From the NCBI GenBank assembly GCA_963777605.1, contig CAVZRV010000013.1, positions 128,001-192,000 on the forward strand: 64,000 nucleotides of DNA, written 5' to 3'. Positions 781-22,504 of the stretch are shown one piece after another; position 1 is the first letter of the stretch; each line of letters opens with the position of its first letter. Source of the DNA: an uncultured Acidobacteriota bacterium (GTDB lineage Bacteria; Acidobacteriota; UBA6911; RPQK01; JAPXNP01). Both the position numbers and the translations under genes were made by a program. A model generated the notes under the pieces. That model did no database searches. It had not been told where the DNA came from and saw only the letters and a list, made by a program, of their open reading frames with translations.

Positions 781-868
781 TGCTCTCCTCCTTCTTCTCG
801 AATCGACCCGGTTTGACCCGGGAGATTTCAATCGGAATCGCGACCAAGTTGCGCTAGCATACCACCCC

Positions 869-1624: not shown

Positions 1625-1627
1625 AGG

Positions 1628-2327: not shown

Positions 2328-5300
2328 ATGAAGCGATTCCCCTGTGTCATCACCCTGTTGGCGTTTGCCTCGGCCCTTTTCATTTCCGGGGCGGCCCGGG
2401 CGGAAATCCAGCCGGCGACGTCCCTCTTTCAGAAACCGACAGTCAACGGGACGCAGATTGTCTTTGAGTACGCCGGCGACCTTTGGCGCGTGTCCCGTGA
2501 CGGGGGTGATGCGGTTCGGTTGACGGTCGGGCCGGGTGCGGAGTCAGGGCCCTTCTTTTCTCCGGACGGCAAGATGATCGCGTTTACCGGGCAATATGAC
2601 GGCAGCACGGACGTCTTTGTGATCCCGACCGAAGGAGGAGTCCCCCAGCGCCTGACCTTCCATCCGGGCACCGATACCGCGGTCGGCTGGACCCCGGACG
2701 GTCAGGTTCTGTTCTCTTCCTCTCGGGCCAGCCAGGGGCCCTATCCTCGATTGTTCGTTGCCCGTCTTGATGGCGGAACTCCCAATCCGCTCCCTCTTCC
2801 AACTGGTGAACGGGGATCTTACTCGCCCGACGGGACCCGGATCGCCTATGAACCGCTCGCGCAGTGGCAACCCGAGTGGAAGCGGTACCGGGGCGGCCAG
2901 ACTGACAAGATCTGGATCGCACGTCTGAGTGATTCGTCGGTCGAGATGATCCCAAGGGAGAACTCCAACGACCGTTACCCCATGTGGGTCGGCGACACCG
3001 TCTACTTCGTGTCCGATCGCGACGGCCTCTATTCGCTGTTCGCCTACGACGTGAATTCGAATCGTGTGACCCGGGTGCTGAAAGACGGCGACATGGACGT
3101 CAAGTCGGCAAACGCATGGCGAGGCGATGCGTCGAGCAAACCCGCAATTGTCTACGAACAGTTCGGGACGATTCATCTCTTCGATCCGGCCTCGGGGAAG
3201 GCGAGCAAGGTGAACATTCGCGTTGCCGCCGATCTTCTTGCTGTCCGGCCCCGGCTCGAAAAAGTTGGAAGCCGGATATACAGCGCCGGTGTCTCTCCGA
3301 CCGGCGTCCGGGCGGTTTTTGGGGCCCGGGGGGAGATCGTCACGGTGCCGGCGGAAAAGGGGGATCCGAGGAACATCACCAATACTCCCGGCGTGAATGA
3401 ACGTGACCCCGCGTGGTCGCCCGACGGGAAGTGGATTGCTTACTTCAGCGATGAGAGCGGAGAGTACGCGCTCCACGTCCGTGACCAGATGGGAAGGGAA
3501 GCGGCCCGGAAGTTCCCGCTCCCCGCGACCTTCTACTACTCTCCTGTCTGGTCTCCCGACAGCAGGAAGATCGCCTTCACCAATAAGAAGCTGGAGCTCT
3601 GGTACCTGGTCGTTGACGGGGGAGAGCCGGTCCGGGTGGACAGGAACCCTCTTGGGATCAACGAGGACATTCTCGATCCGGTCTGGTCTCCGGACAGCCG
3701 CTGGATCGGCTACATCCGGCACCTGGACAACCGTCTCAGGGCGGTTTTCCTGTACTCGCTCGAGACCGGTACGGCAACCCAGTTGACCGACGGGATGAGT
3801 GACGCCCGGTACGTGGCCTTCGATCGGGGCGGCAAGTACCTTTATTTCACGGCGAGCACCAACCTTGGTCCTGGATTCAGCTTTGCCGAAATGTCGACCT
3901 TTCCGTTCCAGTCCTCGCGTAGCGTCTACGCAGCCGTTCTGCGCGACGACATTCCGTCTCCGATGGCTCCTGAAAGCGACGATGAGAACGCCGAGAAGGC
4001 GGACGGGAAGAAGACTGGACGGGAAGAAGGACAAAGAAAAGGAAACCGGAGACAAGCCATCCGAGAGTGATTCCAAGACCGGGCAGAAGGGGGATTCGGA
4101 GAAGTCTTCCGGGCAGGAGGGCGTTGAGCCGATCCGCGTGGATCTGGACGGGATCGGCCAGCGGATCCTGGCTCTTCCGATTCCGTCCCTGCACTACGTG
4201 GGCATCGAAGCGGCCCAGGAAGGAGAGCTCTACCTGCTGGAACTCCCGCCCAGAGGACCGGGTGATCCCGAGGGGCCCCAGGGGCTCGCACTGCACAAGT
4301 TCGATCTCAAGAAGCGCAAGGTGGACGAGGTAACCGACGGCCTGAGTGCCTTTGAGATTTCCTCCGACGGCAAGTCTGCTCTTTACCGGAAAGGTGGGGG
4401 AAGGGGCGGGAGCTGGTATCTGTCGGCTCTTTCGGCGTTGTCCAAGGGCGGCAACGCCGGTGCGGGCAATGGCGCCCACGCGCTGAAGGTCTCGGATATT
4501 TCGATCGAAGTCGATCCGGTCGCGGAGTGGAAGCAGATGTACCACGAAGTCTGGCGGGGCGAACGGGATTTCTTCTACGATCCCAACCTGCACGGGCTCG
4601 ACCTCGCGGCGACCGAGAAGGAGTATGCCCGCTACCTCGGGTCGGTCGCGCATCGGAACGACCTCAACTACCTTTTCACCGAGATGCTCAACCAGTTGAC
4701 GGTGGGGCACATGTTCATCCGGGGCGGGGACATTCCCGACCCCGAGTTCATCCCGGGCGGATTGCTGGGCTGTGACTACGAAGTGGCTAACGGGCGATAT
4801 CGCTTTTCCAAGATCTACAACGGGGAGAACTGGAATCCCGACCTGACGGCTCCCCTGACCCAGCCGGGCATCAACGTGAACGCCGGCGAGTACCTGCTGG
4901 CTGTTGACGGGAAGCAGGTTCAGGCGACCGACAATGTTTTCGGCTTTTTCGAAGGGAAGGCAGGCAAGCAGGTTCTGATTCGGGTTGGGCCCAATGCGGA
5001 CGGTAGCGATGCCCGCGACGTGGTCGTGGTTCCGGTGCGGAGCGAAGCGGGCCTGCGCAACCGCGACTGGATCGAAGGAAACCGGCGCCGGGTCGACGAA
5101 CTGAGCGGCGGCCGGCTCGCCTATGTCTACGTTCCCAACACGTCCACGGCTGGGTACGACAGTTTCAACCGCTACTTTTTCTCCCAGACTCAAAAGGAGG
5201 GCGCGGTTATCGACGAGCGTTTCAACCAGGGGGGAGCCCTGGCCGACTACATCGTCGACTACCTGACCCAGCCGATCCTCAACATGATCTACTTCCGTGA

Positions 5301-5715
5301 AGGACGGGACATCCCAACCCCGCTCGGCGCGATCTATGGTCCGAAAGCGATGATCATCAACGAAATGGCCGGGTCCGGCGGAGACGCACTCCCCTGGTAT
5401 TTCAGAAAGAGAAGCGTCGGACCGCTGGTGGGCAAGCGAACCTGGGGCGGCCTGATTGCGTCGTTCCCCGCTCCGCAGTTGATGGACGGTGGTTCCGTGA
5501 CGGCGCCCGATGCCGCCATCTACGGTCTCGATGGCCATTGGGAAGTCGAGAACGTCGGCGTCCCGCCGGACATCGAAGTCGAGTTCGATCCGGCAGCCTG
5601 GAGGCAGGGCAAAGATCCCCAACTTGAGCGTGCGGTCTCAGAGGTCCTGGAGGCGCTCGAAAAGAATCCGCCGAAGAAGTATCAGCGACCGCCGTTTCCC
5701 AACTACCACAAGTAG
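2328..5715 (+). CDS. Tricorn protease homolog (peptidase S41) split by one frameshift near 4015
   Basis: Signal peptide and SPDG-type beta-propeller repeats (2328..4070), then a PDZ-like region and S41 motifs DERFNQGG, AGSGGD, GKRTWGG (3799..5715). Removing one base near 4016 joins the frames (DGKK-TDGKK-DKEK). Confidence 0.88.
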
Positions 5716-5787
5716 GCGGTAGGATAAGCATCCCTGCTTGTTTCCGTGACCGAAGCCGGAGACTGGAGACTGGACAAGGCCGGAGTT

Positions 5788-5822
5788 TGGTTCCTGGTTC
5801 CTGGTTCCTGGTTCCTGGTTCT
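5788..5822 (+). repeat. Heptamer tandem repeat (TGGTTCC)x5
   Basis: Seen directly; related tracts at about 59654, 59850, 61172 and 40731, and a CTGAATT-type tract at 25531-25565. Confidence 0.9.
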
Positions 5823-5909
5823 TGGGGATTTTGGACTGCGAGTTCAATCGGTTGGCTCCAAACACAGAGCCGGGGGTAAGGCAAAGCCGCGCCCCCGGGT
5901 TCGCCGAAT

Positions 5910-6160
5910 TCACCACAACCCTGGCACGAGGCGATACCGGACCCGCTCGGCATAATCGGAAAACCCGGGAAGTTCCCGCTGCAGGAGCCGATCTTCCAGG
6001 GACGTTCGAACCAGGAGGGTCACCAGCGTTGCCGCGATCGGGAGAAAAGCCCAAACCGAGTTCAACAGAATCGGCATCGCGGCGATGGCGAGCCCGAACC
6101 CGACGTAGCCCGGATGGCGGACCCACTGGTAGCGTTCATCCAGTCCAAGTTTCTTCGTCA
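5910..6160 (-). pseudogene. C-terminal fragment of an isoprenylcysteine carboxyl methyltransferase/PEMT family protein
   Basis: YQWVRHPGYVG, RTSLEDRLLQRELPGFSDYAERVRYRLVPGLW; N-terminal TM region missing. Confidence 0.7.
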
Positions 6161-6259
6161 TGAGATCGCTCCCACGGCCCCGTTTGGTCCAATCCGAACG
6201 GACCTGCGGGGCAACTGGCAACAAGTCATGGATAGCTCCCTTTTGACTCTTTGTCTAGA

Positions 6260-7728
6260 ATGCGAGCGATGTTGAAGTTGGGAGAGTGGGCGCTGCTGCT
6301 GGGGGTGCTCGTGGCCGGAACGGTCCACGTGCGCGGAGAATCTCAAGCGGTCGTCGTTCCGAATGCTTGCCTGCAGGATTCTGCGCAGGCCAAGCCGAAC
6401 CCGGAGTTGGCCGGTGACCCGGGATCGCCCGGGTCTCTGCCCGAATCAGAAGGCCCGGCCGAGGAGACCGGGTCCGAGGAATCTTCTCCAGCGGCAAACA
6501 AGGGTGCAGGGCCGACGTTCCGTTCTCTGGAGTTTCACGGGTTTCTCGACAGTGTCATGCATTTCGAGGAACTCCGGGAGAAGCAGCGCGAGTGGTGGCT
6601 CAACACCAACCGGGCTACGTTCCGTACCTTTGCCACCGTCAACGAGCACCTCGATTTCAAGGTCGGAGTCGTCGGGCGAATGCTGATCGGAACGAAAACG
6701 TTGGACTACGTTCCGTTCATGCCCTGGCACGTTCGGGACGAGTTGATCCCCGACGACCCGGTGAGTGGAAGGCCCGGGACTGGCGATTACCTGGTTGGTC
6801 AAGCCGAAGGGGATCTCTACGTTCAGGAAGCCTACGGAAACGTCAACGCGGGCCGGCTTTTCTTTCGATTGGGGCGTCAGAAGATTGAGACGGGAGTCGG
6901 TTATTCGTATGATCCCACCGATCTTCTCAACCGGAAGAACCCGCTCGACCCGACCTATGAGCCGGACGGATTCGACGCCGCCCGCGTCGGGTTCCGGCTG
7001 TCGTCGGAGTCTGATTTTCAGGTGCTGGTGGTGCCCCGAGGGATTCCCGCGTACCTGGCCCGGTTGGAGAACCGGGCGGAGTCCGGCAAGTTGGCACTTC
7101 AGTTCACGTCGGTGGCAAGGCCCCGGGTGAACTGGAACGCCATGAACACATCCTGCGGGTCTTGACCGTCTGTGGGAGGGGGCCTCAGTCTCCGACTTCG
7201 AGTCCGACTACCGGTGGAACCAGGTTTCGGGAGAGTTCGTCCGCGAAATTCAGGGGACACAAATTTACGGAGAGGCCGGGATCGCGTTCATCCAGGACCG
7301 GCCCGGAAACGATGTCCCGCCCGAATTCATTCGCAACCATCTGCGCTTCCTGGCGGGAGTCGAGCGCACGTTTGAGTCACGTCTCCGTTTGATTCTCGAG
7401 TACATGCGGCAGGGTGACGGGCGGCCCGGGGGCGTTCCGATCGACCTGAACGACATGATGGCGTTCAATGTCGGGGAAACCCTGGCGGCCGACCGGGACA
7501 GTCTCTACGGTGAGGTCTCCTACCCGGTTGCCCGAAAAACCGAGCTGACCTTCAAGTCGCTGGCCGTTCTCAACCACGCAGCCGTCTTCGTCAATCCCTG
7601 GCTCAACTTCGACCTGCGCAGCAACCTGAGGTTGTCGGTCTCCGTCTACAAGTTCTTCGGAACAGCCGGAAGTTCGTACGAAGACGTCGGGATCGGGAGC
7701 CTACGGCGAACTGAGGGCGAGTTTCTGA
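6260..7728 (+). CDS. Putative outer-membrane beta-barrel protein, two frameshifts (about 7150 and 7695)
   Basis: Signal peptide, YVQEAY..FRLGRQKI..G..Y.PTDLLN pattern; correcting two single-base shifts gives one frame ending YGELRASF-stop (C-terminal Phe). Confidence 0.6.
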
Positions 7729-11307: not shown

Positions 11308-11465
11308 AAGCCGAATGTGGAGTGCGGACAGCGAAAGCTTCCACTCTAGAATTTGCCTGCACGTCCCTGGGTCACCGGAGTCTGGACATCCCTGGATCAG
11401 CGCCGGAGGCACAGCGGAATGATGGATTAGCACCGGAGGCACTGCCAAAATTGGTGGAATCAGCA

Positions 11466-11732
11466 CCGGAGGTGCGCCCGAAAATAGCCCAGGGTTTCAA
11501 CCCTGGGTCCGGGGGCAGCAATCGAGGAGAAAGTCCCGGAGGGACGACCGAACCGTCATGTTTGCTACCCCTCCTGCGACCAACCCCTCATGGACCTGCT
11601 CCTCGTGGAACCGGGAATCGAAAGGGACGACGTAACGCGTACCTCGGCCGTCCCTCCGGGACTGGGGACGGGGTAATCGGCCGACGATGACCCAGGGTTG
11701 AAACTTGGGCTATTTTCGATACGTCACTCCGG
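11466..11732. repeat. REPIN/MITE-like nested inverted repeat
   Basis: Outer arms 11479-11509 and 11689-11718; inner arms 11532-11551 and 11644-11663 (1 mismatch). Confidence 0.8.
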
Positions 11733-11852
11733 GACTCCGGAACAACATACGCCCTCGCGGACGCCGGATCAACCATGAACTCCGGATCAAGGGATGCCAA
11801 TTGGGTTGTGATTTCGTATGCTTCCTTCGTAATTTCCTGGGAGAGAGCAACA

Positions 11853-12737
11853 ATGACGCAGTTGGACCTTTTTGATCGAGACAGGGTTATGCGGGAGGAG
11901 ATTCGGTCGGCTTTGGTGGGGCTGGATTTTCGCCGTGCCGGGGAACTTTGCCGGCAGTACGCGGAAATTCCTGGAGCCGCTTCCCTGGAATGGGAGCTGG
12001 ACGTGTTGCACTTCGTCAAGCGGCATGCCCGGAGGCGGTTGAGCCTGGAGGCCGGCGTGAGGCTCTGGGAGGACTTTGAGTCGTCCCTTTTCTTCGGCAG
12101 GATTCCCTCCGTTTATGCTCTGGATCTCGAGAAGAGCTACTTCTCCCGGCTGCTGGCCGCAAACCGGACACTGTTCGATTCGACCAACTCCCCGGAGCGG
12201 GCCCTACTGGCACCGCTTTACATGAGAGCCGGCCAGGCGAAGAACGCCCGGCGCCTGATCCAGAAGGAGATCGAAGAGAACGGTGAAAACTGGGAACTTC
12301 GTCTCCTCCTGGGCAATTGCTTTCTGAGTCTGGGAGAGCCGGTTGCGGCGCGGGTTAACTACACCTGGGCGGCATTGTGCGGACTGCCCGAGACGGCGAT
12401 CGGCGAAGTTGAGGATCCAGACTTCGTGAGGCTCCTCCGGTCAGGGGTCGCACCAGGATGGGGTTTCGCCGAAGCCGCGGCTGAAGGCGTTGTCCGAGTT
12501 CCTCGATTCAAGTCTCGGGATGACTTCGAATCTTTTGTTTCCGAATTCGTCGATCGGATCGAGGGAAACCCGGACAGTATTTCACCGCCCTGCCGGTTCG
12601 CGGTCTGGCTCACCCTCAGCGAGAATCGCCGATTCTGCACCGACGGCCAGTTGCAGGCGGCCCGTCGCCGGCTCAAGGAACTCAACCCAAGACTGCACGC
12701 CGTCCACATGAACCGGCTCAATGCCGAAGGGGGATAG
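11853..12737 (+). CDS. Hypothetical TPR-like helical protein
   Basis: Long ORF with GGAGAG RBS; TPR-like segment LLLGNCFLSLGEPVAARVNY. Confidence 0.65.
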   Translation: MTQLDLFDRDRVMREEIRSALVGLDFRRAGELCRQYAEIPGAASLEWELDVLHFVKRHARRRLSLEAGVRLWEDFESSLFFGRIPSVYALDLEKSYFSRLLAANRTLFDSTNSPERALLAPLYMRAGQAKNARRLIQKEIEENGENWELRLLLGNCFLSLGEPVAARVNYTWAALCGLPETAIGEVEDPDFVRLLRSGVAPGWGFAEAAAEGVVRVPRFKSRDDFESFVSEFVDRIEGNPDSISPPCRFAVWLTLSENRRFCTDGQLQAARRRLKELNPRLHAVHMNRLNAEGG

Positions 12738-12933
12738 GCCGTACGAATTGGCCCGAAAAGGCCGGCCGTCGCGATCGGTTGCGAGGCGCCATTTGAATTC
12801 AGGAATTGACCCCGCAGAGGTCGGATGATTGCCGCCCGGGTGCAAGCGCAGCACGACCCTGTACATAAACGGCAGGGCCCCATCTGGAGTGCGGAAGCGA
12901 AAGGTTCCGCTTTTGAACGAACGACAAAGGCCC

Positions 12934-13254
12934 ATGAGTGAACTGAAAGAAGAGATCAGGAAATCGGCGGCTAGGCGGATCCTCTTCACCGCCCACTCCG
13001 TTCGGCAGATGTCTCGGCCGGAGAGGATGATCAACTCGTCCGAGGTGAAGCGGGTCATCGCGGAGGGAGAAGTCATCGAAGACTATCCGTCCGATCCGCC
13101 CGGTCACAGTTGCCTCCTGCAGGGCAGAGGGAAGAGGGATCGAGCGGTGCATGTTGTATGCTCGCCGAAGGAAGACTATCTGGCCGTGATTACGGCTTAT
13201 CTTCCGAATCCCGAAGAGTGGGAGCCCGGGTTTCGGAATCGGAGGAAGAAATGA
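12934..13254 (+). CDS. DUF4258-family putative toxin
   Basis: FTAHSVRQM, GEVIEDYPSD, SCLLQG, VHVVC, VITAYLPNPEEW. Confidence 0.8.
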   Translation: MSELKEEIRKSAARRILFTAHSVRQMSRPERMINSSEVKRVIAEGEVIEDYPSDPPGHSCLLQGRGKRDRAVHVVCSPKEDYLAVITAYLPNPEEWEPGFRNRRKK

Positions 13255-13463
13255 AATGCATTCATTGCGGCGGAGAAGTGCGCCGCGGACGGGCACCGTT
13301 CCAGATCGACCGGGAAGGGTACGTCCTGACACTTCAGGCGGTGCCGGCCTGGATCTGTGGTCAATGTGGAGAGGCATATTTTGAGGATCGCGAAGTCGAT
13401 TTCATCCAGGAGGTGATCCGGTCGATGGATACAAAAGCCCGGAATCTGGCGGCATCCGCTTAG
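13251..13463 (+). CDS. YgiT/MqsA-type zinc-finger protein (putative antitoxin)
   Basis: MKCIHCGG...VPAWICGQCGEAYF; ATGA overlap with the toxin stop. Confidence 0.8.
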   Translation: MKCIHCGGEVRRGRAPFQIDREGYVLTLQAVPAWICGQCGEAYFEDREVDFIQEVIRSMDTKARNLAASA

Positions 13464-13494
13464 CAGCCTTTGCGGTTGAGACCTGAAACCCGTT

Positions 13495-13836
13495 ATGCAA
13501 CTAGATACACTCGACAAGAAACTCAACGACATCTACGCCGGCCGAGTGGTCCGCAAGGACCTCCTCCACCGGGTTAAAAAGGGCACTAACATTCCGTCTT
13601 TCGTACTGGAGTTCCTGCTGGCCCGATATTGCGCGAGCGACGATCCGGACGAGATCCAGGCAGGGATCGATGCCGTCTTCGAGACGCTGCAGAAGCACTA
13701 CGTCCGTCCGGACGAGTCGAACAAGGCCCAGTCCCACGTCCAGCAGAAGGGGAAGCACAAGTACATCGACAAGCTCCAGGTCCGCTGCGTGGAGCGGGAG
13801 AAACGCCACTGGGCCGAGATGGAGAACTTCGACTCC
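13495..13836 (+). pseudogene. brxL: N-terminal fragment of BREX Lon-like protease BrxL
   Basis: LDKKLNDIYAGRVVRKDL..NIPSFVLEFLLARYCASDD..YVRPDE matches the BrxL N-terminus; similarity ends after about 114 aa. Confidence 0.75.
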
Positions 13837-13990
13837 GCAGTTGGAGGGCGACAAATCACCTTACGCCGAAGGTCATCGTCAGGCTTTCCGCACCAAAGGC
13901 CCTTCAAAGCGCGCGAAGGAACTGATTCGTCGGGTCAAAGCAGCAAAAGCGAAGAAATACTGAGCCGGCGACCGCACTCGGCAGCTGGTA

Positions 13991-14587
13991 CTAGGACTTG
14001 GCCGGCTTGAAATTCTCCGGGATTGTGCCGAGCAACCCGAGAAGGTTTTCAAGTGTTCTTGCCATCCATTCGTTCAGTTCGGGCCAGGTTTCAAGCCTGA
14101 AGATCTGGGATGGTCGTCTCAGGCTGAGGAGGCTTCCTTTGCTGTCTTTGGGGAGCCAGACGACTTCACCGAGCGGAGAGAGTTGCTCTTTGAGCTGACT
14201 GCGAAGCCGATCGTCGATCCGGTCGAACCAGGATTCAGCGCCTGGCCCTGTCAGGCGCACCCAGATTCCGGAGGTGCCGCTGAGCACGTTCCAGAGCACC
14301 AGCCGAATCGGACCCGGACCGGGGATCTCCTTTCCAATGCTTCGATTAGAGGGTTTGCCGAGCTTGATAGAAGGGTCCCGGTTGGCCATGTACTCGTGGA
14401 ACTGCGTCCAGAACCGCTCATGGAGGGCCGCGGCGTTGACCCGCGGTCGGGCCGAGTCATCTCCCCAGAACGACGAATGAGTGAGGCGGCATGTGGATTC
14501 GTGGGATGTAGACTCGATTGCCACCCTGGCGCGTCCATGGCATGCGCGCGGCGATAGCAGGAAGATCGTAGACCATGCCGGTGTCAC
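13991..14587 (-). CDS. DUF4268-like domain protein (start uncertain, possibly a fragment)
   Basis: ERFWTQFHEYM...WPELNEWM pattern typical of DUF4268. Confidence 0.5.
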   Translation of the reverse strand: MTPAWSTIFLLSPRACHGRARVAIESTSHESTCRLTHSSFWGDDSARPRVNAAALHERFWTQFHEYMANRDPSIKLGKPSNRSIGKEIPGPGPIRLVLWNVLSGTSGIWVRLTGPGAESWFDRIDDRLRSQLKEQLSPLGEVVWLPKDSKGSLLSLRRPSQIFRLETWPELNEWMARTLENLLGLLGTIPENFKPAKS

Positions 14588-15174
14588 GGTTGACCACTTG
14601 GTATTCGGGGTTCAATTGCAGTCAGAGTTTCAACCTGGTCTCAGCCATGTGTTACTTCCCGGCGGCCGCCTTCCCGTTGAAGCGAGTCATCATCCATTGA
14701 AGGGTCGATGCGACTGTCCCCTGAATGTTAAGGCGTGACATCCAATTCTGGTCGATGATGCCAAAACGCGCAATGGACTCCGCATTGATCCACAAGAGTC
14801 AGAGCACCGTCGCGAAGACCGAGTTGGGACCTGCCGGTTACCCGGTTCGACTACACTCCGGGTATCCGGCAGGTGATCGAGTCGAAGATTCTCCATTATT
14901 CGGCATCAGCAGGATCTTCTCCTGTCTCTTTTCTTGGCTCGGGAACATGCAACTCGATCCCAAAGTGGACGGTGGACCAGACCGGGCCGCAGGCCATGCC
15001 TCCGGTTGTCAGTGAGAGGCAGAAACGCAGGGATTACGGGCCGTTCCAGCTCAGACCAGAGGAGTGCGGGGAGAAGGCATGAACCTGGGTTAATGCGGTC
15101 CAAACCCAGTTTGAGGATGTGAAAGAAGCGGCGCCGGCTCAAGGGACTCAACCCGAGACTGCACGCCGTCCACC

Positions 15175-15540
15175 CTAACTTGGCGTCTTTGCCACGGATT
15201 TTAACTCCCGATCCACGAATCCGGCGAACCTTGTCGCCGCGATGAGGACCGCGGCGATGTCGGCTGAGGCGAGGCGGAAGGTGGAGGGGTGGGCGAAGGA
15301 GTTGCCGCAGGTTTGGAGGAGCTTCAGGTGGGAGAACATCCAGGGGCGGGAATCGATCTGGAGATCGTAGGCGAAAACCCGTACATGCTTCAGCCCGGGT
15401 GCAGTATCCACCCAGCGGCGGATCAGGTTGAGAGTTTCGTCGGCGGCATCTTCCGGCGGGATGCCCTGGTCTCCGGTGCCCAAAAGGGGCAGGGAGACGG
15501 ACTCGACTCCGGGAGGGCAGTGTCGAAGCAGAGATTCAGA
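15175..15540 (-). pseudogene. C-terminal part of a Macro-domain protein
   Basis: In-frame SVSLPLLGTGDQGIPPEDAA..LKHVRVFAYD; frame starts directly after a TGA at 15541-15543. Confidence 0.6.
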
Positions 15541-15542
15541 TC

Positions 15543-15872
15543 ATGGTGGGGATTCGGGGCCGGGCGCTCGAGCATGCCGACCAGGGGCGCTGGGAAGATG
15601 CCGCGGTCCTGCTCGGCCAGTGCGTCGAGGTGATCCGGGGCTTCGGAATTGACGATCCCAGGATCCAGTCGGAGATCGAAGAACTCGAGGAGATGGCCCG
15701 AAACCTGCGTTTCCGGGGAGAGGAGTACTACTCGCCGGTGGTCCGCAAGCGTGCCTTTTATGCCTCGGAGCTGGCCTCGAAGGGACGCTTCGACCAGGTG
15801 GCTTCGATGAGGATCCGGCGTTCCGAGGACTACCTGGATCCGGATAGAATCCGAAGAAACCGGCGAAGATGA
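15543..15872 (+). pseudogene. C-terminal helical tail resembling vWA-domain proteins
   Basis: RALEHADQGRWEDAAVLL..EIEELEEMA resembles recalled vWA-protein tails; no RBS or vWA core present. Confidence 0.4.
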
Positions 15873-16041
15873 TTCAGTTCAGAGACTGAAGGGCGAGTGA
15901 TACTTTGCCGACAAAGAGGGAGGAGTCGAGTGGATACCGTCCGCCTGGAGGCAAAAGGACTGTTCGGCAGAAGTACGGACGATTCCGGAGATCGAAGGGG
16001 GAGTCCTTGGCAGAACGAAGACAGATTGGAAGGAGAACTGA

Positions 16042-17115
16042 ATGAGTGATCCGGGGCTGGAGATACTGCAATTCGTATACGACTCGGCGAAGATCGACTC
16101 GGAGTGGTCGGTTTGGGAAGATCGAAGCTTTACCTGGTGGGGCGGGGGGCTCGCCCAAAAAGTCTGGGCTGAAGAGGCCCATGACGACGATGGAATCGTC
16201 ATTTACCGGCTGCATGCTCGAACGGACTGCGTCCGGAGTTTCGATGAAGGCGTTTGCAATGAAATAATGCCTGAGTTGCTGCCATTGATCTCTCCACTTT
16301 GTGGTCCGATTCTTGACCCGGCGGATTTAACCAGGATCAAACTGGCTTCAAGCATGATCGTGCACGAGGAAAGCTCTGAGTGGATCAAATCCGTCTTCTC
16401 CTGGGCGGTGGCCGTCCAGGCGGCGGAGGCGCACGCGCTGTGCCCGACGATGGCCGATCTGTTATCCGGAGAACCGGATTATTCCAGCCACCCGAAGTCC
16501 GGTTCTCGAGGCGAGTTGGATGACATGCTCAATATTGTTTCGGAGACCGTGCGTCCGCAGGGTGAATCCCCATGTACCTTTGTTGGGCCTGAAATGGAAC
16601 GCGTCGGGGCGATGCTGCAGCGGCCTCCCTGCGTGTTGGCAACCAAGGATGAGGACGGAATCACGGCAGAGTACCCGTTTGGGGATGCCACCAGTCTCGT
16701 GGAAGTGGTGCCCGACACTCACCCGCGCCTGGGGAACGGCTTACGGATCTGTGTCCAGTTGCCGTTCCTCGTATCCGACGAAGACGATCCCGACGGTGAG
16801 ACCCTCTCTTTCCTGCGACTGAATCGCCAGGATTTTGATCTCCCGCTCGGGGGATACTTCCTGGGCACCTGGGGGAGCATGCCCAACGGCTATCTCTCCC
16901 ACAACTCCTTCTTCCCGAACGTCTTATATCGACCCGGGATCCTCACGAACCTGGTTCTGGGAACGTTCGTTCGGGTCAAGTGGATTACGGAGAACATTTT
17001 CGAGCTCCCCTTGATGGAGAATTACGATGCGGCCTCGCAGCGGAGGATGGAGAAGCTCGAAGAACTCGCGGGGGATCCCGACGCCTTGATGCGATTGCTT
17101 GGCGGGGAGGAGTGA
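16042..17115 (+). CDS. Conserved hypothetical protein (possibly tandem YbjN/T3SS-chaperone-like domains)
   Basis: 357-aa ORF with AAGGAG RBS; fold is a guess. Confidence 0.65.
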   Translation: MSDPGLEILQFVYDSAKIDSEWSVWEDRSFTWWGGGLAQKVWAEEAHDDDGIVIYRLHARTDCVRSFDEGVCNEIMPELLPLISPLCGPILDPADLTRIKLASSMIVHEESSEWIKSVFSWAVAVQAAEAHALCPTMADLLSGEPDYSSHPKSGSRGELDDMLNIVSETVRPQGESPCTFVGPEMERVGAMLQRPPCVLATKDEDGITAEYPFGDATSLVEVVPDTHPRLGNGLRICVQLPFLVSDEDDPDGETLSFLRLNRQDFDLPLGGYFLGTWGSMPNGYLSHNSFFPNVLYRPGILTNLVLGTFVRVKWITENIFELPLMENYDAASQRRMEKLEELAGDPDALMRLLGGEE

Positions 17116-17158
17116 GGACAAGGGCGCGCCGACTGGGAATCGGCGTTGACGGAGGGGA

Positions 17159-18168
17159 ATGAGCAAACGGCAATTGGAACCGATCGAACGACTCTCCTAC
17201 GAAGCCACAAGGCTGTTTCGAGAGCACCCACCGGTGATTCGCGACCGCAACAAGCAGGTCGTTTTCGAAATTGCCTGCCCGGAAGGATCGCGGCACCGTG
17301 GAGAGATTGTCTACTCCCGTTGGATATCGATGCCGGTTCCGGCCCAAATGGATCCAGTGCGGGCCGTTTCACGAGTTGAGGCCAGCAAGTCAATTTACGA
17401 TTACGGACCGGTTGCTCCTGGCGCGGTGGAGTGGCATGTAAACTTTGCCGATTCGGAGCTGTTCGGCTTTTACGCGACAGGACTTTTTGCCCAGGACGAA
17501 CTGCAGGTGGCCGAGCATCCGATCCTGGGCTCCCTTAAGGAGGCTCTCCGGGCGTCGAATCGACCAAGACCTCACAGTCGAGGTGGGACGCCCGACCCCG
17601 ATTCTCATCTCGGGTGCGGAGCGGCGCTGCCGGGTGGCGATCGACCCGAATCCTGACGAGGGGCGCCCGTTTGGACTCTATGGCAACCGGTTCGCGCAGG
17701 CCCCCGAGGACGCCGTTCGCGGGGCGACTGCCCGGATCGATCCGCCGACGGTCAGCAACCTGGTCTGCATTGCCGCCCCGGCCTGTGGCTTGGGGAACTA
17801 CTCGCGCGAGCAGATTCAGTTCATTATGGAGACGGCCTACACGGGTTTTCGGGCGGCCGTTCTGGAATCGGGGCGAGCTCACGGAGACGAACGACCGGTG
17901 GTTGTCCACAGCGGGCTTCTGGGGTTGCGGCGCCTTCGGGGGGAACCGGGTGCTGATGGCTACTCCTCCAGGTTCTTGCCGCCGAAGCTGCTGGACTGTG
18001 AGCCGACTTGTCTTTCACACGGTCGATGCTGCGGGGTCCGCGAAACTGGCGGAGGCCTTGGAACTGATTCAGTCGCGGCCGGCGACCGAACGCGTCGAAA
18101 ATACCGAGGCTCTGGTTGACTGGATTCTCGGTCACGGCTTCCGGTGGGGAATCAGCGACGGCAATTGA
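17159..18168 (+). CDS. Poly(ADP-ribose) glycohydrolase (PARG)-like protein, frameshifted
   Basis: WHVNFAD..LFGFYATGLFAQDE (QEE-type catalytic loop), CIAAP, AYTGF, GFWGCGAFGGN across three overlapping frames. Confidence 0.75.
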
Positions 18169-18236
18169 GTAGCCGCACAAAGCCACGCCGGGAATGCTGA
18201 AGGGGGCCCGAACATTACCAGGTCTCAGCGAGTCGT

Positions 18237-19004
18237 TCAGCCAACTGTCGAATGCAGGCGGGAACCATTCCGATGATTGAGTTGGCCGGCCGGGATTTTG
18301 TCTGCTCCCCATCGGGCCCCTCCGATGGAGCCCACCAGTACCGGGCAGTAATTGGCCGGCCCGGCAAACTCCAGGGAGCTTTCCAGTGCCTTCTCGAAGC
18401 TTTCGGCCCGATCGAGGAAATGAACGGCGGCGGCGAAGACCTGCGGAGCAAAGCCACCCCTTGAGAGTTCATTCCTCGGGAATCCGAGACGCCCGCCGGG
18501 CAAGGCCACAGGAGGGATCCTTCCCAACGCAACTCCCCAGTCGAATCCCCGGATCAGTCGTCGACACAGTTCGGCAACTGCGGCCGAGACCTCTCCGGCA
18601 ATCGGCGAGTAATGCGTCAGTCGCGCTTCCTCCCGGGCAAAATCGGCAACCTCGGTATCTGTGAGGAATCCGGCTGCAGCCAGGACGGAGGCCCGGTGGG
18701 CGGGGTTGCACCCTCCGGTCAGGCCGCCCAGATCGTCGTCCGTTCGTCGTGCTGCCTCGACACGATCGATACCCTGTTCGAGATAATGGAAGACCCGGGT
18801 GAACACCTCCCCGGTGTCGAAGGCATCGGTATGCCACCAGTCGAGGTACCGGTTGAACAGGTCGTCCGGATCAAAAGCGCTTCGGCTCAGGAGAGTCTTG
18901 GCGACGAACGACGCCATTCGGATCGGCCCGCCGTTTCGGTCTCCGGCAGCAAGTCCAAGAAGCAAGCCCTGGGCGCGGTTTCGGTATTCATCGCGAAGAT
19001 TCAT
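18237..19004 (-). CDS. ADP-ribosylglycohydrolase (DraG/ARH) family protein, divergent
   Basis: GLLLGLAAGD, YLDWW..AFDTG, EARLTH, VGSIGGARWG. A late frameshift may extend the true end to 18215. Confidence 0.8.
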   Translation of the reverse strand: MNLRDEYRNRAQGLLLGLAAGDRNGGPIRMASFVAKTLLSRSAFDPDDLFNRYLDWWHTDAFDTGEVFTRVFHYLEQGIDRVEAARRTDDDLGGLTGGCNPAHRASVLAAAGFLTDTEVADFAREEARLTHYSPIAGEVSAAVAELCRRLIRGFDWGVALGRIPPVALPGGRLGFPRNELSRGGFAPQVFAAAVHFLDRAESFEKALESSLEFAGPANYCPVLVGSIGGARWGADKIPAGQLNHRNGSRLHSTVG

Positions 19005-19039
19005 CGGAAAAGGATAACCTGGAAGGTCGCGCTACGGTG

Positions 19040-19071
19040 AACCTGGGTTGAAGATGCTTAACCTGGGTTGA
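19040..19071 (+). promoter_or_regulatory. Putative upstream activator sequence: AACCTGGGTTGA x2, 20-bp period
   Basis: Exact 12-bp direct repeat of a pseudo-palindrome at 19040-19051 and 19060-19071, about 110-140 bp upstream of the predicted start site. Confidence 0.55.
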
Positions 19072-19153
19072 TGACTTCGTATATGTTTTTGGAGATGATC
19101 GACTCGATAGGTAATCTATTAAATGCAATGACTTAGCCGAACATCGCATCGAG

Positions 19154-19170
19154 TTGGCATGGCTCCTGCA
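19154..19170 (+). promoter_or_regulatory. Sigma54 (-24/-12) promoter
   Basis: TTGGCATGGCTCCTGCA has exact GG-N10-GC spacing and lies upstream of an operon encoding a sigma54 activator; predicted +1 about 19181. Confidence 0.8.
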
Positions 19171-19180
19171 GTAGATGCTC

Positions 19181-19263
19181 TCGGGTCCGGGTGAGAGCGG
19201 CGGTTACCCCCAGAAACCATGCGGGAGCTGACCTCCTGCAGGCCGCTTTCTGCCCGGGCCGGA
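19181..19263 (+). ncRNA. Candidate structured RNA or leader (three-way junction)
   Basis: Stems 19184-92/19252-60, 19193-201/19242-50, 19202-05/19215-18 and 19220-27/19233-40 fill the gap between predicted +1 and the RBS. Confidence 0.5.
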
Positions 19264-19276
19264 ATGGAGGAGTGTC

Positions 19277-20227
19277 ATGCAGTTTCCAAAATCAGTCTTG
19301 AATCCGTTGACCCTGGGCGAGCCGATGACAAGTGATGCGCTCACGGTCTATCCCGTCCTGGGTGCTTCCGAAAGTGCCATCCAGCTGTTCGATCTCGACG
19401 AGGCCCTTGCGCAGGGTTGGATCGAGATCGGCGAGGTTTCTGAATCGGGAAACGTCCCCGAATTAGGCGTGATCAACCAGTCGCCCCATCGGGTCATCCT
19501 CTTTGACGGGGAAGAGCTCGTCGGGGCCAAGCAGAACCGGATCGTCAATGTCACGATCGTGGTCGCTCCCTTTGCCAGGCTGAGGATCCCGGTGTCGTGC
19601 GTGGAGCAGGGACGCTGGCGGTGGCACAGCCGTCACTTCGACGCGGGCGAATTTGCCTACCCGAGCCTGCGACGGGACAAGTTCGAGCGCGTCAGTCAGA
19701 ACTTGGAGATGCGGCAGGGATTTGCCGCCGACCAGGGGATGATCTGGCACGACATTGCCGCCAAGTCCGCCCGCATGGGCGTTCACAGCGAAACCGGCTC
19801 GATGCGGGACATCGGGGCGCGGCATTTCATTGATGACCGCCAGATCCAGAAGGAGATCGCGCACCAGCCCCGCCAGGTCGGCTATCTCGCCTTCATCCGG
19901 GACGGCTTCGCCGGTGGCGACATCTTCTCGTCGTCTGAAATCTCGGCGCGGAAATTTTACAAGCTGGTCCGGACATATTACCTGGACTCGCGCGATCCTG
20001 AAGCCGAGTTCCGCCCGGTCCCGGCCGATGAAGTGATGGGTCGCATCGGGAGCAGCGCGGTCGAACCGGTCGAGAGCATCGGGGAGGGAAGTGACTTCCG
20101 ATTCCGTCAGCGCGACATCCAGGGATCGCTGACCCAGGTCGGTGAGATACTGGTCCACCTGGCGGTTTTCCCCGTTGTCCGGGATGGCTTCCGGCGGCCG
20201 GCACGACCGCATTTCCGGGTTGACTGA
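19277..20227 (+). CDS. ARPP-1 (DUF6569) family protein
   Basis: DGEELVGAKQNRIVNVTI, IPVSCVEQGRW, DQGMIW; GGAGGA RBS. Confidence 0.85.
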   Translation: MQFPKSVLNPLTLGEPMTSDALTVYPVLGASESAIQLFDLDEALAQGWIEIGEVSESGNVPELGVINQSPHRVILFDGEELVGAKQNRIVNVTIVVAPFARLRIPVSCVEQGRWRWHSRHFDAGEFAYPSLRRDKFERVSQNLEMRQGFAADQGMIWHDIAAKSARMGVHSETGSMRDIGARHFIDDRQIQKEIAHQPRQVGYLAFIRDGFAGGDIFSSSEISARKFYKLVRTYYLDSRDPEAEFRPVPADEVMGRIGSSAVEPVESIGEGSDFRFRQRDIQGSLTQVGEILVHLAVFPVVRDGFRRPARPHFRVD

Positions 20228-20311
20228 AACCGAAATTCGCCATAGCGTTCCCGGACGAGCCCCTTCAGATCAGCGGAGGGGCCCGGGAGCGCTCAGGGAA
20301 AGGATTTGGAA

Positions 20312-21916
20312 ATGCCACGGACTGCACAAGGAACACTGCTCACCTTCACCGGGTTCCATGACCCCTATTCCGACGGACCCGTCGAAGGAAGCCGCCAGCC
20401 GGGCCCGATTCTGAGCCTGCTCGGAGAGCGCTCGTTTCGCCGGGTCATCCTGTTTTCAACCCCGTCCACCGTGGAAGTGACCGAAAAGACGAGGGAAGCC
20501 ATTGCCGAAGAAGAGCCGGATGTACAAGTCGCGGTTCGGCATCTCGAGCTGCCCGATCCGACCGACTATTCGTCCATTCTCCAAGAACTGCGTCGAAGCC
20601 TTCGGGATCTTGCCGCCTGGAAGCTGGGAGACGTCTTTATTGCCACGGCCTCCGGCACCCCTCAGATGCACGCCTGCTGGATCCTGCTCGTGACGTCCGG
20701 GGAACTGCCGGGTCGCCTCCTTCACGTTCGCCCACCCCGGTTCGTCAGCCGCGACGCACCCATGGTTACGGAAGTCGATCTCTCGGAGCCGGAGTTCTCC
20801 CCTCTGGTGCTCCGGGAGAGCAGCCATTTCCGTGACGTCGGCGCCGATGAACTCGACATGGAGGAGCCGTTTATGTCGGCGTTGGCCCTGCCGAGCGCAC
20901 CTTCGATTGAGCGGTCTCGCGTAGACCGGGTGATCGAAGCCACCTCGCGGCCCGAACCTGACTTGGCGGCAATTTGCGAGCAGGAAGGGATCGTCGGGGA
21001 TGATCCCGGAATGATCGATGCCGTGAGGCGGGCGGTGACCGTTGCGCCTTACGATGAGCCGGTTCTCATTTTCGGCGAAAACGGAACCGGCAAGGAGTTG
21101 ATTGCCAGGCTGATCCACCGGACGAGCCATCGTTCGGGAGGCCCCCTGGTTTCGGTGAATTGTTCGGCGATTCCGGAGGACCTGGCCGAGAGCATCCTGT
21201 TCGGACACAAGAAAGGTTCGTTTACCGGAGCCATTCAGGATGAGCAGGGGAAATTTCGGTTGGCCAATGGAGGCACGCTCTTTCTGGACGAGGTTGGAGA
21301 GCTTTCCTTTGCGATTCAGGCCAAGTTACTGAAGGCGGTTGAATATCAGGTAATTGAACCGGTGGGGGAAGGTCGAGAAAGCACAGTCGATATCCGAATT
21401 GTGACGGCGACGAACCGAAACCTGTGGGATATGGTCGGGTCTGGATCGTTCCGTAAGGACCTCTACTATCGGCTGGTCGGGGCGCTGGTTGAGGTGCCGC
21501 CGCTTCGATCACGTCGCAGTGATATCAGCAAGCTGGCGATTCATTTCCTGGAGGCGTTCTCACGACGGTACCGGACGAGGCGTCAGTTTACTACCGCGGC
21601 GTTGCGTCGCCTGCAACATCACGATTGGCCGGGCAATGTCCGCGAGCTCGGGCACGTGGTTCGGGCGGCCGCGATGCTGGCCCACAGCGGGAAGATCGAA
21701 GCCGACGACATCGAACTGCTGGCCCGAAAGCCCGACCACGATCTTCCGGAACCACACGACGGTTTTTCGGTCGAGAGGTATCTGGCCGAGGTCCGCCGCA
21801 AACTGTTCGAGCGGGCTCTGGAAATCAGTCAAGGCAACCAGGCCGCCGCGGCACGCCTGCTCGGCGTCAGCGGAGCCGCGGTGTCCAAGTTCGTGAACAA
21901 GGAACGGCCCGCGTAA
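20312..21916 (+). CDS. RtcR-like sigma54-dependent activator: CARF-like N-domain, AAA+ and Fis-type HTH
   Basis: LLTFTGFHDPY..GPILSL..DPTDY..ASGTPQMH (CARF-like); GENGTGKE, FGHKKGSFTGA, LFLDEV, WPGNVREL, NQAAAARLLGVS. Confidence 0.88.
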   Translation: MPRTAQGTLLTFTGFHDPYSDGPVEGSRQPGPILSLLGERSFRRVILFSTPSTVEVTEKTREAIAEEEPDVQVAVRHLELPDPTDYSSILQELRRSLRDLAAWKLGDVFIATASGTPQMHACWILLVTSGELPGRLLHVRPPRFVSRDAPMVTEVDLSEPEFSPLVLRESSHFRDVGADELDMEEPFMSALALPSAPSIERSRVDRVIEATSRPEPDLAAICEQEGIVGDDPGMIDAVRRAVTVAPYDEPVLIFGENGTGKELIARLIHRTSHRSGGPLVSVNCSAIPEDLAESILFGHKKGSFTGAIQDEQGKFRLANGGTLFLDEVGELSFAIQAKLLKAVEYQVIEPVGEGRESTVDIRIVTATNRNLWDMVGSGSFRKDLYYRLVGALVEVPPLRSRRSDISKLAIHFLEAFSRRYRTRRQFTTAALRRLQHHDWPGNVRELGHVVRAAAMLAHSGKIEADDIELLARKPDHDLPEPHDGFSVERYLAEVRRKLFERALEISQGNQAAAARLLGVSGAAVSKFVNKERPA

Positions 21917-22504
21917 TCGGAGTGCGTCTGAAGCCTCGCGAGTGAAGAAGGCGACGCCCGCGGCTACGTTCGGTGACTGTGGGAGTGAACCGAGCGCAAA
22001 AGGCAACCTGGCAGGTTGCGCGACCTGGCAGCCTGGAAGGCCGGATTACTCTCGCAACCTGGAAGGTTGCGCTGAGTGAGGGGGTATGGCGGAGAGGGTG
22101 GGAGACTCCTGATGCAACACTGGAAAAAGCACTTAACCTATTTATAATCAATGGATAAAGGAAAAAATGAGCTGTTTGAAAGTTGATCGGTTTTGGCCTT
22201 TTTTATGCATGTGATGCAGCGTTTGACGCAGTACTGGTGCGGCTTTCCAGAGATTCGGACTGTTGCGACGCTCGGAGGCAAAACGGCGGAGAGGCATTTC
22301 TCTTCCGCCAAAAGTCCGCGGAAACCCAGGCAGACTCAGCGTTTCCCGTTTGCCAAAAACCCTCTCCGCCATCTTTTTCGGCTCTTACGACTTGACTGAA
22401 TTGCATCATTTGATTGCGCATTCAAGTCGTTTAGTTTCGTCAAGTCGGCACGACAGCTGAGAAGGGAACGCACAGCAATCCCCTTGATGTAATGATTCGC
22501 CGTT

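Follow-up and report, generated by a model that had tools for sequence, protein, structure and literature searches.

A candidate sigma-54-dependent ARPP-1 and CARF-activator unit in an apparently eroding defence island of an Acidobacteriota genome

The ARPP-1 and activator genes and their promoter region

The analysed window was a 64,000-nucleotide (nt) stretch of the genome of an uncultured soil Acidobacteriota bacterium (G000), running from position 128001 to 192000 of contig C13 in an assembly of 6.73 Mb and 53 contigs that is 96.73% complete with 5.68% contamination. Between positions 15175 and 21916 of the window lay a group of genes related to adenosine diphosphate (ADP)-ribose together with a transcriptional activator. 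Two of them, ARPP-1 and the CARF-AAA+-HTH activator, were intact and adjacent on the plus strand behind a candidate enhancer and a sigma-54 promoter, and upstream of these lay a Macro fragment, the tail of a vWA gene, a gene for a protein of 357 amino acids (aa), a PARG-like gene and an ARH/DraG-like gene. A preliminary description of the sequence had listed these seven pieces, and all of them were recovered at or near the places it gave by Pfam, by relatives and by comparison with contig C37 of the same assembly.

ARPP-1 (19277 to 20227, plus strand, 316 aa) matched PF20208 with an expect (E) value of 7.3e-77 over profile positions 2-297 of 297. Its residues C108 and Q111, in the stretch IPVSCVEQGRW, were invariant across three proteins of family f1, and a conserved Cys and Gln are the residues stated for ARPP in Iyer et al. 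(PMC9503650); the full-length match and the two residues together place the protein in ARPP-1.

The activator (20306 to 21916, plus strand, 536 aa) was assigned to the RtcR_PspF2 type by Pfam, PADLOC and a structure model. Pfam returned Sigma54_activat (PF00158, E 4.6e-62), AAA_lid_14 (3.2e-20) and RtcR (1.3e-9, with 38.2 bits against a cut-off of 23.1), as well as HTH_8 (3.1e-4), whose 20.8 bits lay slightly below the cut-off of 22, while a match to ZraR (1ojl) extended to residue 523. The translation contained GSFTGA (a GAFTGA-type loop), the Walker A motif GENGTGKE and the Walker B motif LFLDEVGE, and the two parts that characterise a bacterial enhancer-binding protein, an AAA+ domain with a GAFTGA-type loop and a C-terminal HTH, were both present. 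The PADLOC profile RtcR_PspF2--CARF_AAA_HTH (PDLC01995) covered residues 10-532 on profile positions 3-477 of 481 (E 9.8e-124), and the protein is a member of this type. In PADLOC the N-terminal domain matched CARF1 (5.4e-13) and Csx1/Csm6 (9.7e-10), and CARF-HEPN models matched it too. Its AlphaFold2 model (residues 1-185; predicted local distance difference test, pLDDT, 87.2) had Csm6 6tug as the best Foldseek match (E 2e-7, probability 1.00) among 74 matches with E <= 0.001, the rows shown being all CARF proteins; the other top matches were Cam1, Can2, Card1, Csx1, Cad1 and the ring nuclease Sso2081. The N-terminal domain is thus predicted by the model to have the CARF fold and to belong to the CARF superfamily, which upholds the point on which the preliminary description had allowed itself to be refuted.

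The equivalog model for RtcR itself (NCBIfam NF038308) reached only 324 bits against a cut-off of 650 and covered residues 210-524 only. The activator is RtcR-like without being an RtcR equivalog, and is tied neither to rtcAB nor to CRISPR. The rtcB gene of the genome lay on another contig (C10), behind an archease-like open reading frame (ORF) and with no activator beside it, in agreement with the earlier view that the sensor is unlinked to rtcAB. The activator was the sole RtcR-domain match in the genome; rpoN was present, and neither Cas1 nor a Cas10 above the cut-off was found in the genome.

Upstream of ARPP-1, two palindromic AACCTGGGTTGA sites 20 nt apart, at 19040 and 19060, formed a candidate enhancer (19040 to 19071), recognised from the repeats and from a family alignment. 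A sigma-54 -24/-12 promoter, TGGCATGGCTCCTGCA, followed on the plus strand at 19155 to 19170, 107 nt before the ARPP-1 start codon, and was recognised from its pattern and from conservation in the family-f1 genome G010. There, the same 19-mer in inverted orientation and then TGGCACGAAGCCTGCA (a TGGCAC-N5-CTGCA promoter) stood before ARPP-1 in the same relative place as in the window. The exact enhancer 12-mer had four copies in the 6.7-Mb genome, two of them before ARPP-1; of the other copies, the one on contig C29 had no promoter nearby, and another was on contig C37 (below).

Relatives of the activator were collected by a CARF-domain scan of 185,579 species' genomes, which gave 150 relatives; the best 80 loci were kept, 76 of them with a callable activator ORF. 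The cassette of this family consists of paired AACCNNGGTT sites and, about 85 nt further on, a TGGCAY-N5-YTGC sigma-54 promoter, and lies just after the activator stop codon. The AACCNNGGTT sites were present in 39 of the 76 loci, usually as a pair about 21 nt apart; the 10,577 nt surrounding the stop codon contained 47 of them, the remaining 823,461 nt only 19. Promoters of the TGGCAY-N5-TTGC type (GG and GC required, at most 2 mismatches) gave 55 plus-strand matches at 0-199 nt after the stop codon in the 76 loci, one locus giving two of them, mostly at +99 to +120, and none on the minus strand. The enhancer and promoter of the window aligned column for column with the family cassettes, including the AAGATGYTT spacer. 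By a criterion defined in this analysis and not taken from a publication, the window therefore contains an RtcR_PspF2 cassette, but its place is upstream of ARPP-1 and not, as in the relatives, downstream of the activator. The matching -24/-12 promoter noted in the preliminary description is accordingly backed by its conservation in G010 and its alignment with the family cassette, while the pattern alone was not significant.

Because the family cassette lies upstream of ARPP-1 in both the window and G010, the two genes probably belong to a single unit that activates itself, with the activator lying within the unit it switches on. Autoactivation, which had been raised as a possibility before, is plausible because the enhancer and promoter precede both genes and the 78 nt that separate ARPP-1 from the activator showed nothing resembling a terminator.

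Further sites of this kind were seen around the unit. Two GCAACCTGG(C/A)AGGTTGC palindromes (AACC-N5-GGTT) lay at 22004 to 22069, 88-153 nt after the activator stop codon, and may represent the usual downstream cassette in decayed or variant form; no sigma-54 promoter was found after the activator or after these palindromes. An element TAACCTGGAAGGTCGCGC at 19016-19033, near the start of the ARH-like gene, resembled the repeats at 22053-22069, and a further AACCTGGGTTAA site was located at 15082-15093 within a window-specific insert. For the ARH-like gene, CGGCTAAGTCATTGCA on the minus strand at about 19125-19140 was considered as a promoter and set aside, as it has 3 mismatches to the consensus and the enhancer would be downstream of it. 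Before the 357-aa gene, neither a sigma-54 promoter nor a palindrome was seen at 15873-16041. On contig C37 (locus L119), the core ATCAACCCAGGTTAAC of an enhancer half-site pair at 1692-1707 preceded TGGCACTCCTCGTGCA (1816-1831) by 124 nt, followed by an ORF for a PEGA-domain secreted protein (1879-2628). This segment is deleted in the window, and the PEGA-domain gene of the C37 variant may be a second target of the activator.

Occurrence of ARPP-1 and the activator in other genomes

ARPP-1 was distributed patchily, being present in 14 of 61 related genomes, its own included. Among 16 genomes of family f1, three carried ARPP-1 (G000, G006 and G010), and in all three the activator was directly downstream. 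On the short contig L060, ARPP-1 and the activator adjoined on opposite strands, and no clear AACCNNGGTT pair was seen in the intergenic region. In genus g12, ARPP-1 was divergent from a Nudix-NrtR regulator in 3 of 3 loci scanned. At least 559 metagenome relatives of ARPP-1 were found, and the nearest 80 were examined; in 23 of the 72 with a callable ARPP ORF, an HTH-WYL-WCX regulator adjoined ARPP. The metagenome contig L131 carried a different, unrelated RtcR-like activator (RtcR E 1.3e-4, slightly below the cut-off), then TGGCACGACGTCTGCA, then ARPP-1. ARPP-1 habitually neighbours a ligand-sensing regulator, and the CARF/sigma-54 version appears at least twice; the pairings with WYL and Nudix are those published in section 3.8 of Iyer et al. 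2022 (PMC9503650). The pair of ARPP-1 and activator was found only in a few Acidobacteriota and in the one analogous metagenome contig. A degraded, inverted second copy of the pair at 13.6-15.6 kb of the window, suggested by a weak tblastx signal, was rejected, the best tblastn E value with five related proteins being 0.09.

The activator relatives were spread over many phyla, and a quick tree placed near-identical activators in different phyla, as expected of mobile islands. The same-strand downstream genes included HsdR in 38 of the 76 loci and HsdM or HsdS in 34, and smaller sets of loci carried vWA or AAA_15/DUF3696. In 43 of the 76 loci the first cargo gene encoded a small protein without a Pfam family, 30 of one type and 13 of another. 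These proteins, of about 108-124 aa (30 loci, e.g. L081:9582-9956) or about 159 aa (13 loci, e.g. L046:9502-9981), stood before HsdR or vWA and had no Pfam, PADLOC or NCBIfam match. The gene contents suggest that the RtcR_PspF2 family mainly regulates restriction-modification (R-M); RtcR-like regulators are described as 'often associated with R-M systems' (Makarova 2014, PMC4012209), and RtcR homologs are described at the head of defence superoperons (Bell 2024, PMC11090510). BrxL_N was found upstream in 2 of the 80 loci, about 1.7 kb from the activators of L095 and L102 (two Gammaproteobacteria; 5943-6278), and the family may thus accompany bacteriophage exclusion (BREX) systems too.

With a threshold of E <= 1e-12, three of the 80 loci (G010, G006 and L060), all of them from Acidobacteriota, had ARPP-1 beside the activator. 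L034 (E 0.001) was tried as a fourth and left uncounted, as the match falls inside the activator gene. In the quick tree, the ARPP-linked activators formed their own long branch outside a clade of 64 rows that is mostly restriction-linked (Shimodaira-Hasegawa-like approximate likelihood ratio test, SH-aLRT, 100 and 98). The neighbourhood survey that the preliminary description had called for thus pointed mainly to restriction-modification. As to the co-occurrence of the listed genes in other genomes, it extended to the ARPP-1/activator pair and to PARG adjacency in one other genome, G010, where the order PARG, ARPP-1, activator recurs; the ARH, 357-aa, vWA and Macro genes were not found beside ARPP-1 or the activator elsewhere in the surveyed loci.

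Flanking genes and genome setting

The PARG-like gene (17159 to 18168, plus strand) was broken, with at least two frame changes, near 17545-17575 and 17905-17915, and an out-of-frame stretch near 17955-18005. The frames of the window itself reached only E 0.059 in Pfam, while the G010 ortholog (L017:3600-4598) was a single frame of 332 aa that matched PF05028 (PARG_cat_C) at E 2.8e-13 and human PARG structures at E 4e-7 over its GxWGCGAFGG stretch. The ortholog is thus a canonical PF05028 protein in one open frame, and the window copy is not. By tblastn, the G010 ortholog aligned to the window in three segments in frames +1, +2 and +3 with identities of 57%, 62% and 46%, respectively. Inspection of the DNA by eye showed single-base length differences at both frame changes and a stretch of about 45 nt near 17955-18005 that fitted better in another frame. 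The motifs FAQDE and GFWGCGAFGG were present in the window, the former being compared with the canonical QEE motif of PARG. The PARG assignment of the preliminary description is therefore carried by the ortholog, and the break over three frames had gone unremarked. Uninterrupted ORFs of up to 1160 aa nearby argue against a generally error-rich assembly; a local assembly error at the PARG-like gene is possible because the tricorn gene (2328-5715) also looks split and a variant contig exists. Two 151-nt reads of one DNA run, which contained 8% of the sampled words, mapped to 18400-18711, outside the PARG frame changes, and no RNA run containing them was listed. In G010, where the PARG-like gene is intact, the activator ortholog was split over two frames (L017 5920-6930 and 6858-7520), a pattern of breakage opposite to that of the window.

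The ARH/DraG-like gene (18237 to 19004, minus strand) encoded a divergent protein of 255 aa and was directed away from ARPP-1. Its PF03747 match (E 6.9e-24) agrees with the family given earlier; its antisense orientation and the state of its metal site had not been remarked on. Against Thermus 2cwc and DraG 2woc, the GGDADT metal-binding motif reads AGPANY, and about 35 residues were missing at the N-terminal metal-ligand region, presumably the site of the N-terminal Thr-Asp-Asp ligands of ARH enzymes. The replacement motifs GGP-RMA and FAGPANYCPVLVG were invariant in two homologs with 47% and 49% identity, and because of this the protein represents a conserved divergent subfamily and no decayed gene. 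This subfamily was rare (4 of 401 genomes, that of the window included), and its neighbours elsewhere were unrelated.

The Macro piece (15175 to 15540, minus strand; Pfam Macro E 0.067) was a Macro plus DUF4145 deletion remnant. It was 97-98% identical in nucleotides to C37 4552-4706 and 5024-5175, with 317 nt of C37 missing between them, and equalled the C-terminal third of a 188-aa minus-strand ORF of C37. That 188-aa ORF, an N-terminal one, had 92 further relatives, the majority of them about 340 aa long. The profile built from 35 of these matched macroH2A1.1 (E 1.3e-10) and TTHA0132 (7.8e-10), and also the PARP14/15 macrodomains and AF1521; DUF4145 occurred in the C-terminal half of 5 of the 35 profile members. 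The window ORF thus appears to be the product of an internal deletion that fused the end of Macro to the end of DUF4145, so that the Macro origin claimed earlier stands by way of the C37 family, for a remnant only. The vWA-like tail (15491 to 15872, plus strand; C37 6835-7162) was confirmed as the 3' end of the C37 vWA gene, with the domain itself deleted in the window: positions 15491-15820 were 91.5% identical to the last 330 nt of the intact ORF L119:5712-7214 (PF00092 E 5.9e-16).

The 357-aa protein (16042 to 17115, plus strand) proved to be a real ORF with 23 homologs at 33-41% identity and, as had been noted, no Pfam family. Its AlphaFold2 model (pLDDT 90.9; predicted template modelling score, pTM, 0.90) contained two alpha/beta domains and gave no Foldseek match at E <= 0.001. 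In VIA-align (48,161 chains), the top match was the YbjN-like 2plg_B (Z 11.3, root mean square deviation 2.9, 129 residues), and 18 of the top 19 rows were type III secretion system (T3SS) chaperones (VecA, SicP, SigE, ExsC, SycN-YscB and others) or YbjN-family proteins, all on residues 1-142. The N-terminal domain is thus predicted to have the T3SS-chaperone/YbjN ('TY-chaperone') fold, and the C-terminal domain (about 170-320) reached Z values of 6-8 only (Atg10, frataxin and others). The family occurred in 11 of 401 Acidobacteriota genomes, including that of the window.

Fragments of other defence genes preceded the locus. A BREX BrxL Lon-like N-terminal fragment of 171 aa (13495 to 14010, plus strand; PF20442 BrxL_N E 6.3e-34, PADLOC BrxL E 3.6e-45) spanned positions 2-112 of the 698-position PADLOC model and is probably a defence-island remnant. 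It was followed by a DUF4268/PDC-S11-like C-terminal fragment (13991 to 14587, minus strand; PF14088 E 1.7e-5, PADLOC PDC-S11 E 7.9e-6), aligned to profile positions 174-304 of 318. At 12829-13463 on the plus strand, a DUF4258-like ORF and an ORF of the MqsA/YgiT-type zinc-ribbon kind were observed, 98% identical to a pair on C37 whose DUF4258 match was E 1.2e-22; the pair is likely a toxin-antitoxin. With its BrxL, PDC-S11/DUF4268 and DUF4258/MqsA-like pieces, the stretch appears to be an eroding defence island.

Positions 11341-15894 of the window and contig C37 (7.6 kb, 1-7602) formed a mosaic of 91-98% identity with differing indels, and C37, which may represent a second copy or else a strain variant that was assembled along with the genome, retained the intact vWA gene and about 2 kb missing from the window. 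The guanine-plus-cytosine (GC) content was about 0.60 up to 22 kb and down to 0.51-0.54 at 22-28 kb in a scan of the window, with a change from 0.62 to 0.51-0.54 at the end of the activator, beyond about 22000. The remaining window contained housekeeping genes, namely those for DNA polymerase III tau/gamma, AdoHcy hydrolase, cytochrome oxidase subunit I and a P-type ATPase, and recR, lnt and prfB. A tricorn-type protease was read in two overlapping plus-strand frames, 2328-4070 and 3799-5715, with a PD40 beta-propeller part and a Tricorn C1/PDZ/S41 part, which reflects either a frameshift in the gene or an indel in the assembly. The prfB (RF2) ORF (37815-38762, plus strand) began at PCRF profile position 36, which is consistent with the usual programmed +1 frameshift.

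Interpretation and comparison with known systems

The preliminary description had proposed an RtcR-like sensor coupled to ADP-ribose reversal. In that form the proposal is not supported, since only ARPP-1 was behind the promoter, with the PARG-like gene upstream of the enhancer and outside the reach of the promoter, the ARH-like gene antisense, and Macro and vWA present as remnants. The earlier interpretation is partly supported, about half of it being right, and the link to ADP-ribose is weaker than had been proposed. The flanking genes (TY-chaperone, PARG-like, ARH-like, vWA and Macro-DUF4145) appear to match the accessory parts of the ARG-centric systems that counter ADP-ribosylation, themselves a computational prediction (Iyer, Burroughs, Anantharaman and Aravind 2022, Viruses 14:1977, PMC9503650, section 3.8). 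As read from the gene order, none of these flanking genes is behind the promoter, they are partly decayed, and ARPP-1 is the only cargo demonstrated. The locus is therefore read as a sensor-plus-ARPP-1 module: we consider it somewhat more likely than not that the core is a two-gene, sigma-54-dependent, self-activating unit of ARPP-1 and the activator within an eroding defence island, with no intact ADP-ribose-reversal operon.

The order of this unit is the enhancer with its two AACCTGGGTT palindromes, the -24/-12 promoter, ARPP-1 and the CARF-AAA+-HTH activator. In the proposed mechanism, the CARF domain would bind a nucleotide-derived signal of damage or infection, most likely RNA ends with a 2',3'-cyclic phosphate by analogy with RtcR; a cyclic oligoadenylate made by Cas10 is unlikely as the ligand, given that the genome search returned neither Cas10 nor Cas1. 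The activator would then assemble on the palindromes and open the sigma-54 promoter, and the production of ARPP-1 and of more activator would amount to positive feedback. ARPP-1, which is predicted to be an enzyme that uses Cys and Gln and has ribose moieties as its target, would process ADP-ribose-type adducts or their products. The CARF ligand, the activity of ARPP-1 and a role against ADP-ribosylation by phages or toxins are all presumed at this stage.

Several observations weigh against this reading. The promoter pattern was not enriched in the window, with 19 matches vs 21.9 expected, and the region upstream of ARPP-1 could be compared in two genomes only, the window and G010, in the latter of which the activator is frameshifted and no ARH-like gene lies between PARG and ARPP-1. 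The ARPP-1/activator pair was absent from the other 76 of the 80 activator loci, and the activator type of the window was absent from all 80 of the nearest ARPP-1 metagenome loci. Among the neighbours, the PARG-like gene appears to be a pseudogene as assembled, the ARH-like protein is without canonical metal ligands, and in the 10 loci retrieved for homologs of the 357-aa protein, none of the other genes of the locus was near them. The ORFs scanned at 11.7-24 kb included no phosphatase, whether of the rhodanese-phosphatase, calcineurin-like, HD or HAD kind, and those at 11.7-26.6 kb no Nudix or WYL regulator. The chemistry of ARPP-1 is itself a published prediction (PMC9503650). Lastly, a local mis-assembly at the locus may be considered because of the 5.68% contamination and the near-identical variant C37.

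Three other explanations bear on the same evidence. ARPP-1 and the activator could be a self-contained sensor amid unrelated defence debris, with no ADP-ribose-reversal system at all; the BrxL fragment, the PDC-S11-like fragment and the DUF4258/MqsA-like pair within the same 8 kb are in keeping with this, as are the unrelated neighbours of the ARH-like and 357-aa homologs elsewhere and the position of every ADP-ribose neighbour outside the sigma-54 promoter. However, five families of ARG-centric systems (ARG, Macro, vWA, the TY-chaperone fold and ARPP; PMC9503650) occur here within 4.5 kb, PARG, which is not listed in section 3.8 of that paper, makes a sixth ADP-ribose-related gene, so many together being unlikely by chance, and the order PARG, ARPP-1, activator is repeated in G010, so that we judge chance debris rather unlikely. 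The family of the CARF domain, that of RtcR, and the association of the activator's relatives with nucleic-acid-targeting systems would suit a role in the repair of nucleic-acid ends, in which the CARF domain senses cyclic-phosphate RNA ends, the substrates of ARPP-1 are RNA or DNA ends that are damaged or ADP-ribosylated, and not proteins, and the unit as a whole would answer RNA or DNA damage. Such a role is unlikely, as the unit contains no RNA ligase, cyclase or nuclease, rtcB lies elsewhere with no activator beside it, and the neighbours belong to ADP-ribose hydrolase families.

It is also conceivable that the activator lost a downstream defence cargo at the GC break near 22.1 kb and that ARPP-1 is an incidental upstream neighbour. 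HsdR downstream in 38 of the 76 related loci would be such a cargo, and the promoterless palindrome-like repeats at 22004-22069 and the GC drop after about 22000 could mark the loss. Yet a complete cassette lies upstream of ARPP-1 in two genomes, G006 and G010 are also without restriction-modification cargo downstream, and the ARPP-linked activators stand on their own branch of the quick tree outside the restriction-linked clade, which makes this loss very unlikely.

The self-activating sensor-plus-ARPP-1 unit brings two published predictions together, namely that RtcR-like CARF activators drive defence genes and that ARPP/ARG loci counter ADP-ribosylation. The enhancer motif and promoter position found across the 76 loci provide a reporter design for the whole activator family, the replacement of a WYL or Nudix sensor by CARF beside ARPP-1 narrows the search for the ligand, and the unit of two genes is small enough for transfer to a model host. 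The decayed neighbours show how defence islands erode. As a bolder idea, and one we regard as doubtful, RtcR_PspF2 with its cassette would be a portable infection-sensing sigma-54 switch that was rewired into a positive-feedback loop with ARPP-1, whose substrate or product would be of one chemical family with the CARF ligand. The shared chemistry would be that of ribose cyclic phosphates, for example RNA ends with a 2',3'-cyclic phosphate or ADP-ribose 1'',2''-cyclic phosphate; if this were true, the CARF, WYL and Nudix sensors beside ARPP would all read one ADP-ribose-derived alarm signal. On the same idea, ARPP-1 might also work on the CARF domain directly, or through it, as is reported of RtcA and RtcB with RtcR.

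Compared with known systems, the locus resembles the ARG-centric systems in bringing together an ARG/ARH-family gene, ARPP, Macro, vWA and a protein of the TY-chaperone fold, a fold that Iyer et al. (PMC9503650) assigned to accessory proteins of these systems, and in having a ligand-sensing transcription factor beside ARPP. As in those systems, scanning the ORFs at and near the locus showed no ADP-ribosyltransferase (ART) and no sirtuin. The accessory genes (vWA, TY-Chap and Macro/ARPP) are all represented, ARPP-1 intact and vWA and Macro as remnants only. The ARG gene itself is represented by a PF03747 member, but one with the AGPANY motif, without the N-terminal ligands, encoded on the other strand and not present at the locus in G010. 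ARG-centric systems have a Nudix-HTH or WYL-HTH negative regulator in about 42% of cases and a coupled phosphatase in about 55% (PMC9503650). Neither was found among the ORFs scanned here; the regulator is instead a sigma-54 activator of the CARF type, which exerts positive control and is probably autoactivating. The window also differs in having a PARG-like gene of eukaryote type, an ARH-like protein without canonical metal ligands, and several parts that are pseudogenes or remnants.

With the RtcR_PspF2 regulators of restriction-modification and CoCoNuT loci (PMC4012209, PMC11090510), the activator shares the full-length PADLOC match and the CARF motifs LTFTGFHD and SGTPQMHACW, and the enhancer palindromes and the type of sigma-54 promoter in the window are those of these relatives as well. 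In the relatives the cassette and cargo usually come after the activator and the cargo consists of restriction genes, whereas here the cassette stands before ARPP-1 and the activator, which puts the regulator within its own transcription unit, with ARPP-1 as the cargo. The architecture of CARF, sigma-54 AAA+ and HTH domains is that of the RtcR-rtcBA system of E. coli and Salmonella, in whose feedback loop RtcA generates the inducing RNA ends (PMC11090510); unlike RtcR, the activator of the window is below the equivalog cut-off and not beside rtcA or rtcB. The pairing of ARPP-1 with a one-component ligand sensor is shared with the ARPP + WYL and ARPP + Nudix (NrtR-type) modules, which act by direct repression, whereas the sensor here is CARF and its output goes by way of sigma-54 and ATP hydrolysis. 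The main text of PMC9503650 has no mention of RtcR or sigma-54, and a search of the literature, supplements excluded, found no paper linking ARPP with RtcR or sigma-54. The locus thus appears to combine in a new way two kinds of system that have been published as predictions, namely ARG-centric ADP-ribose-reversal loci (Iyer 2022) and defence regulators resembling RtcR (Makarova 2014, Bell 2024).

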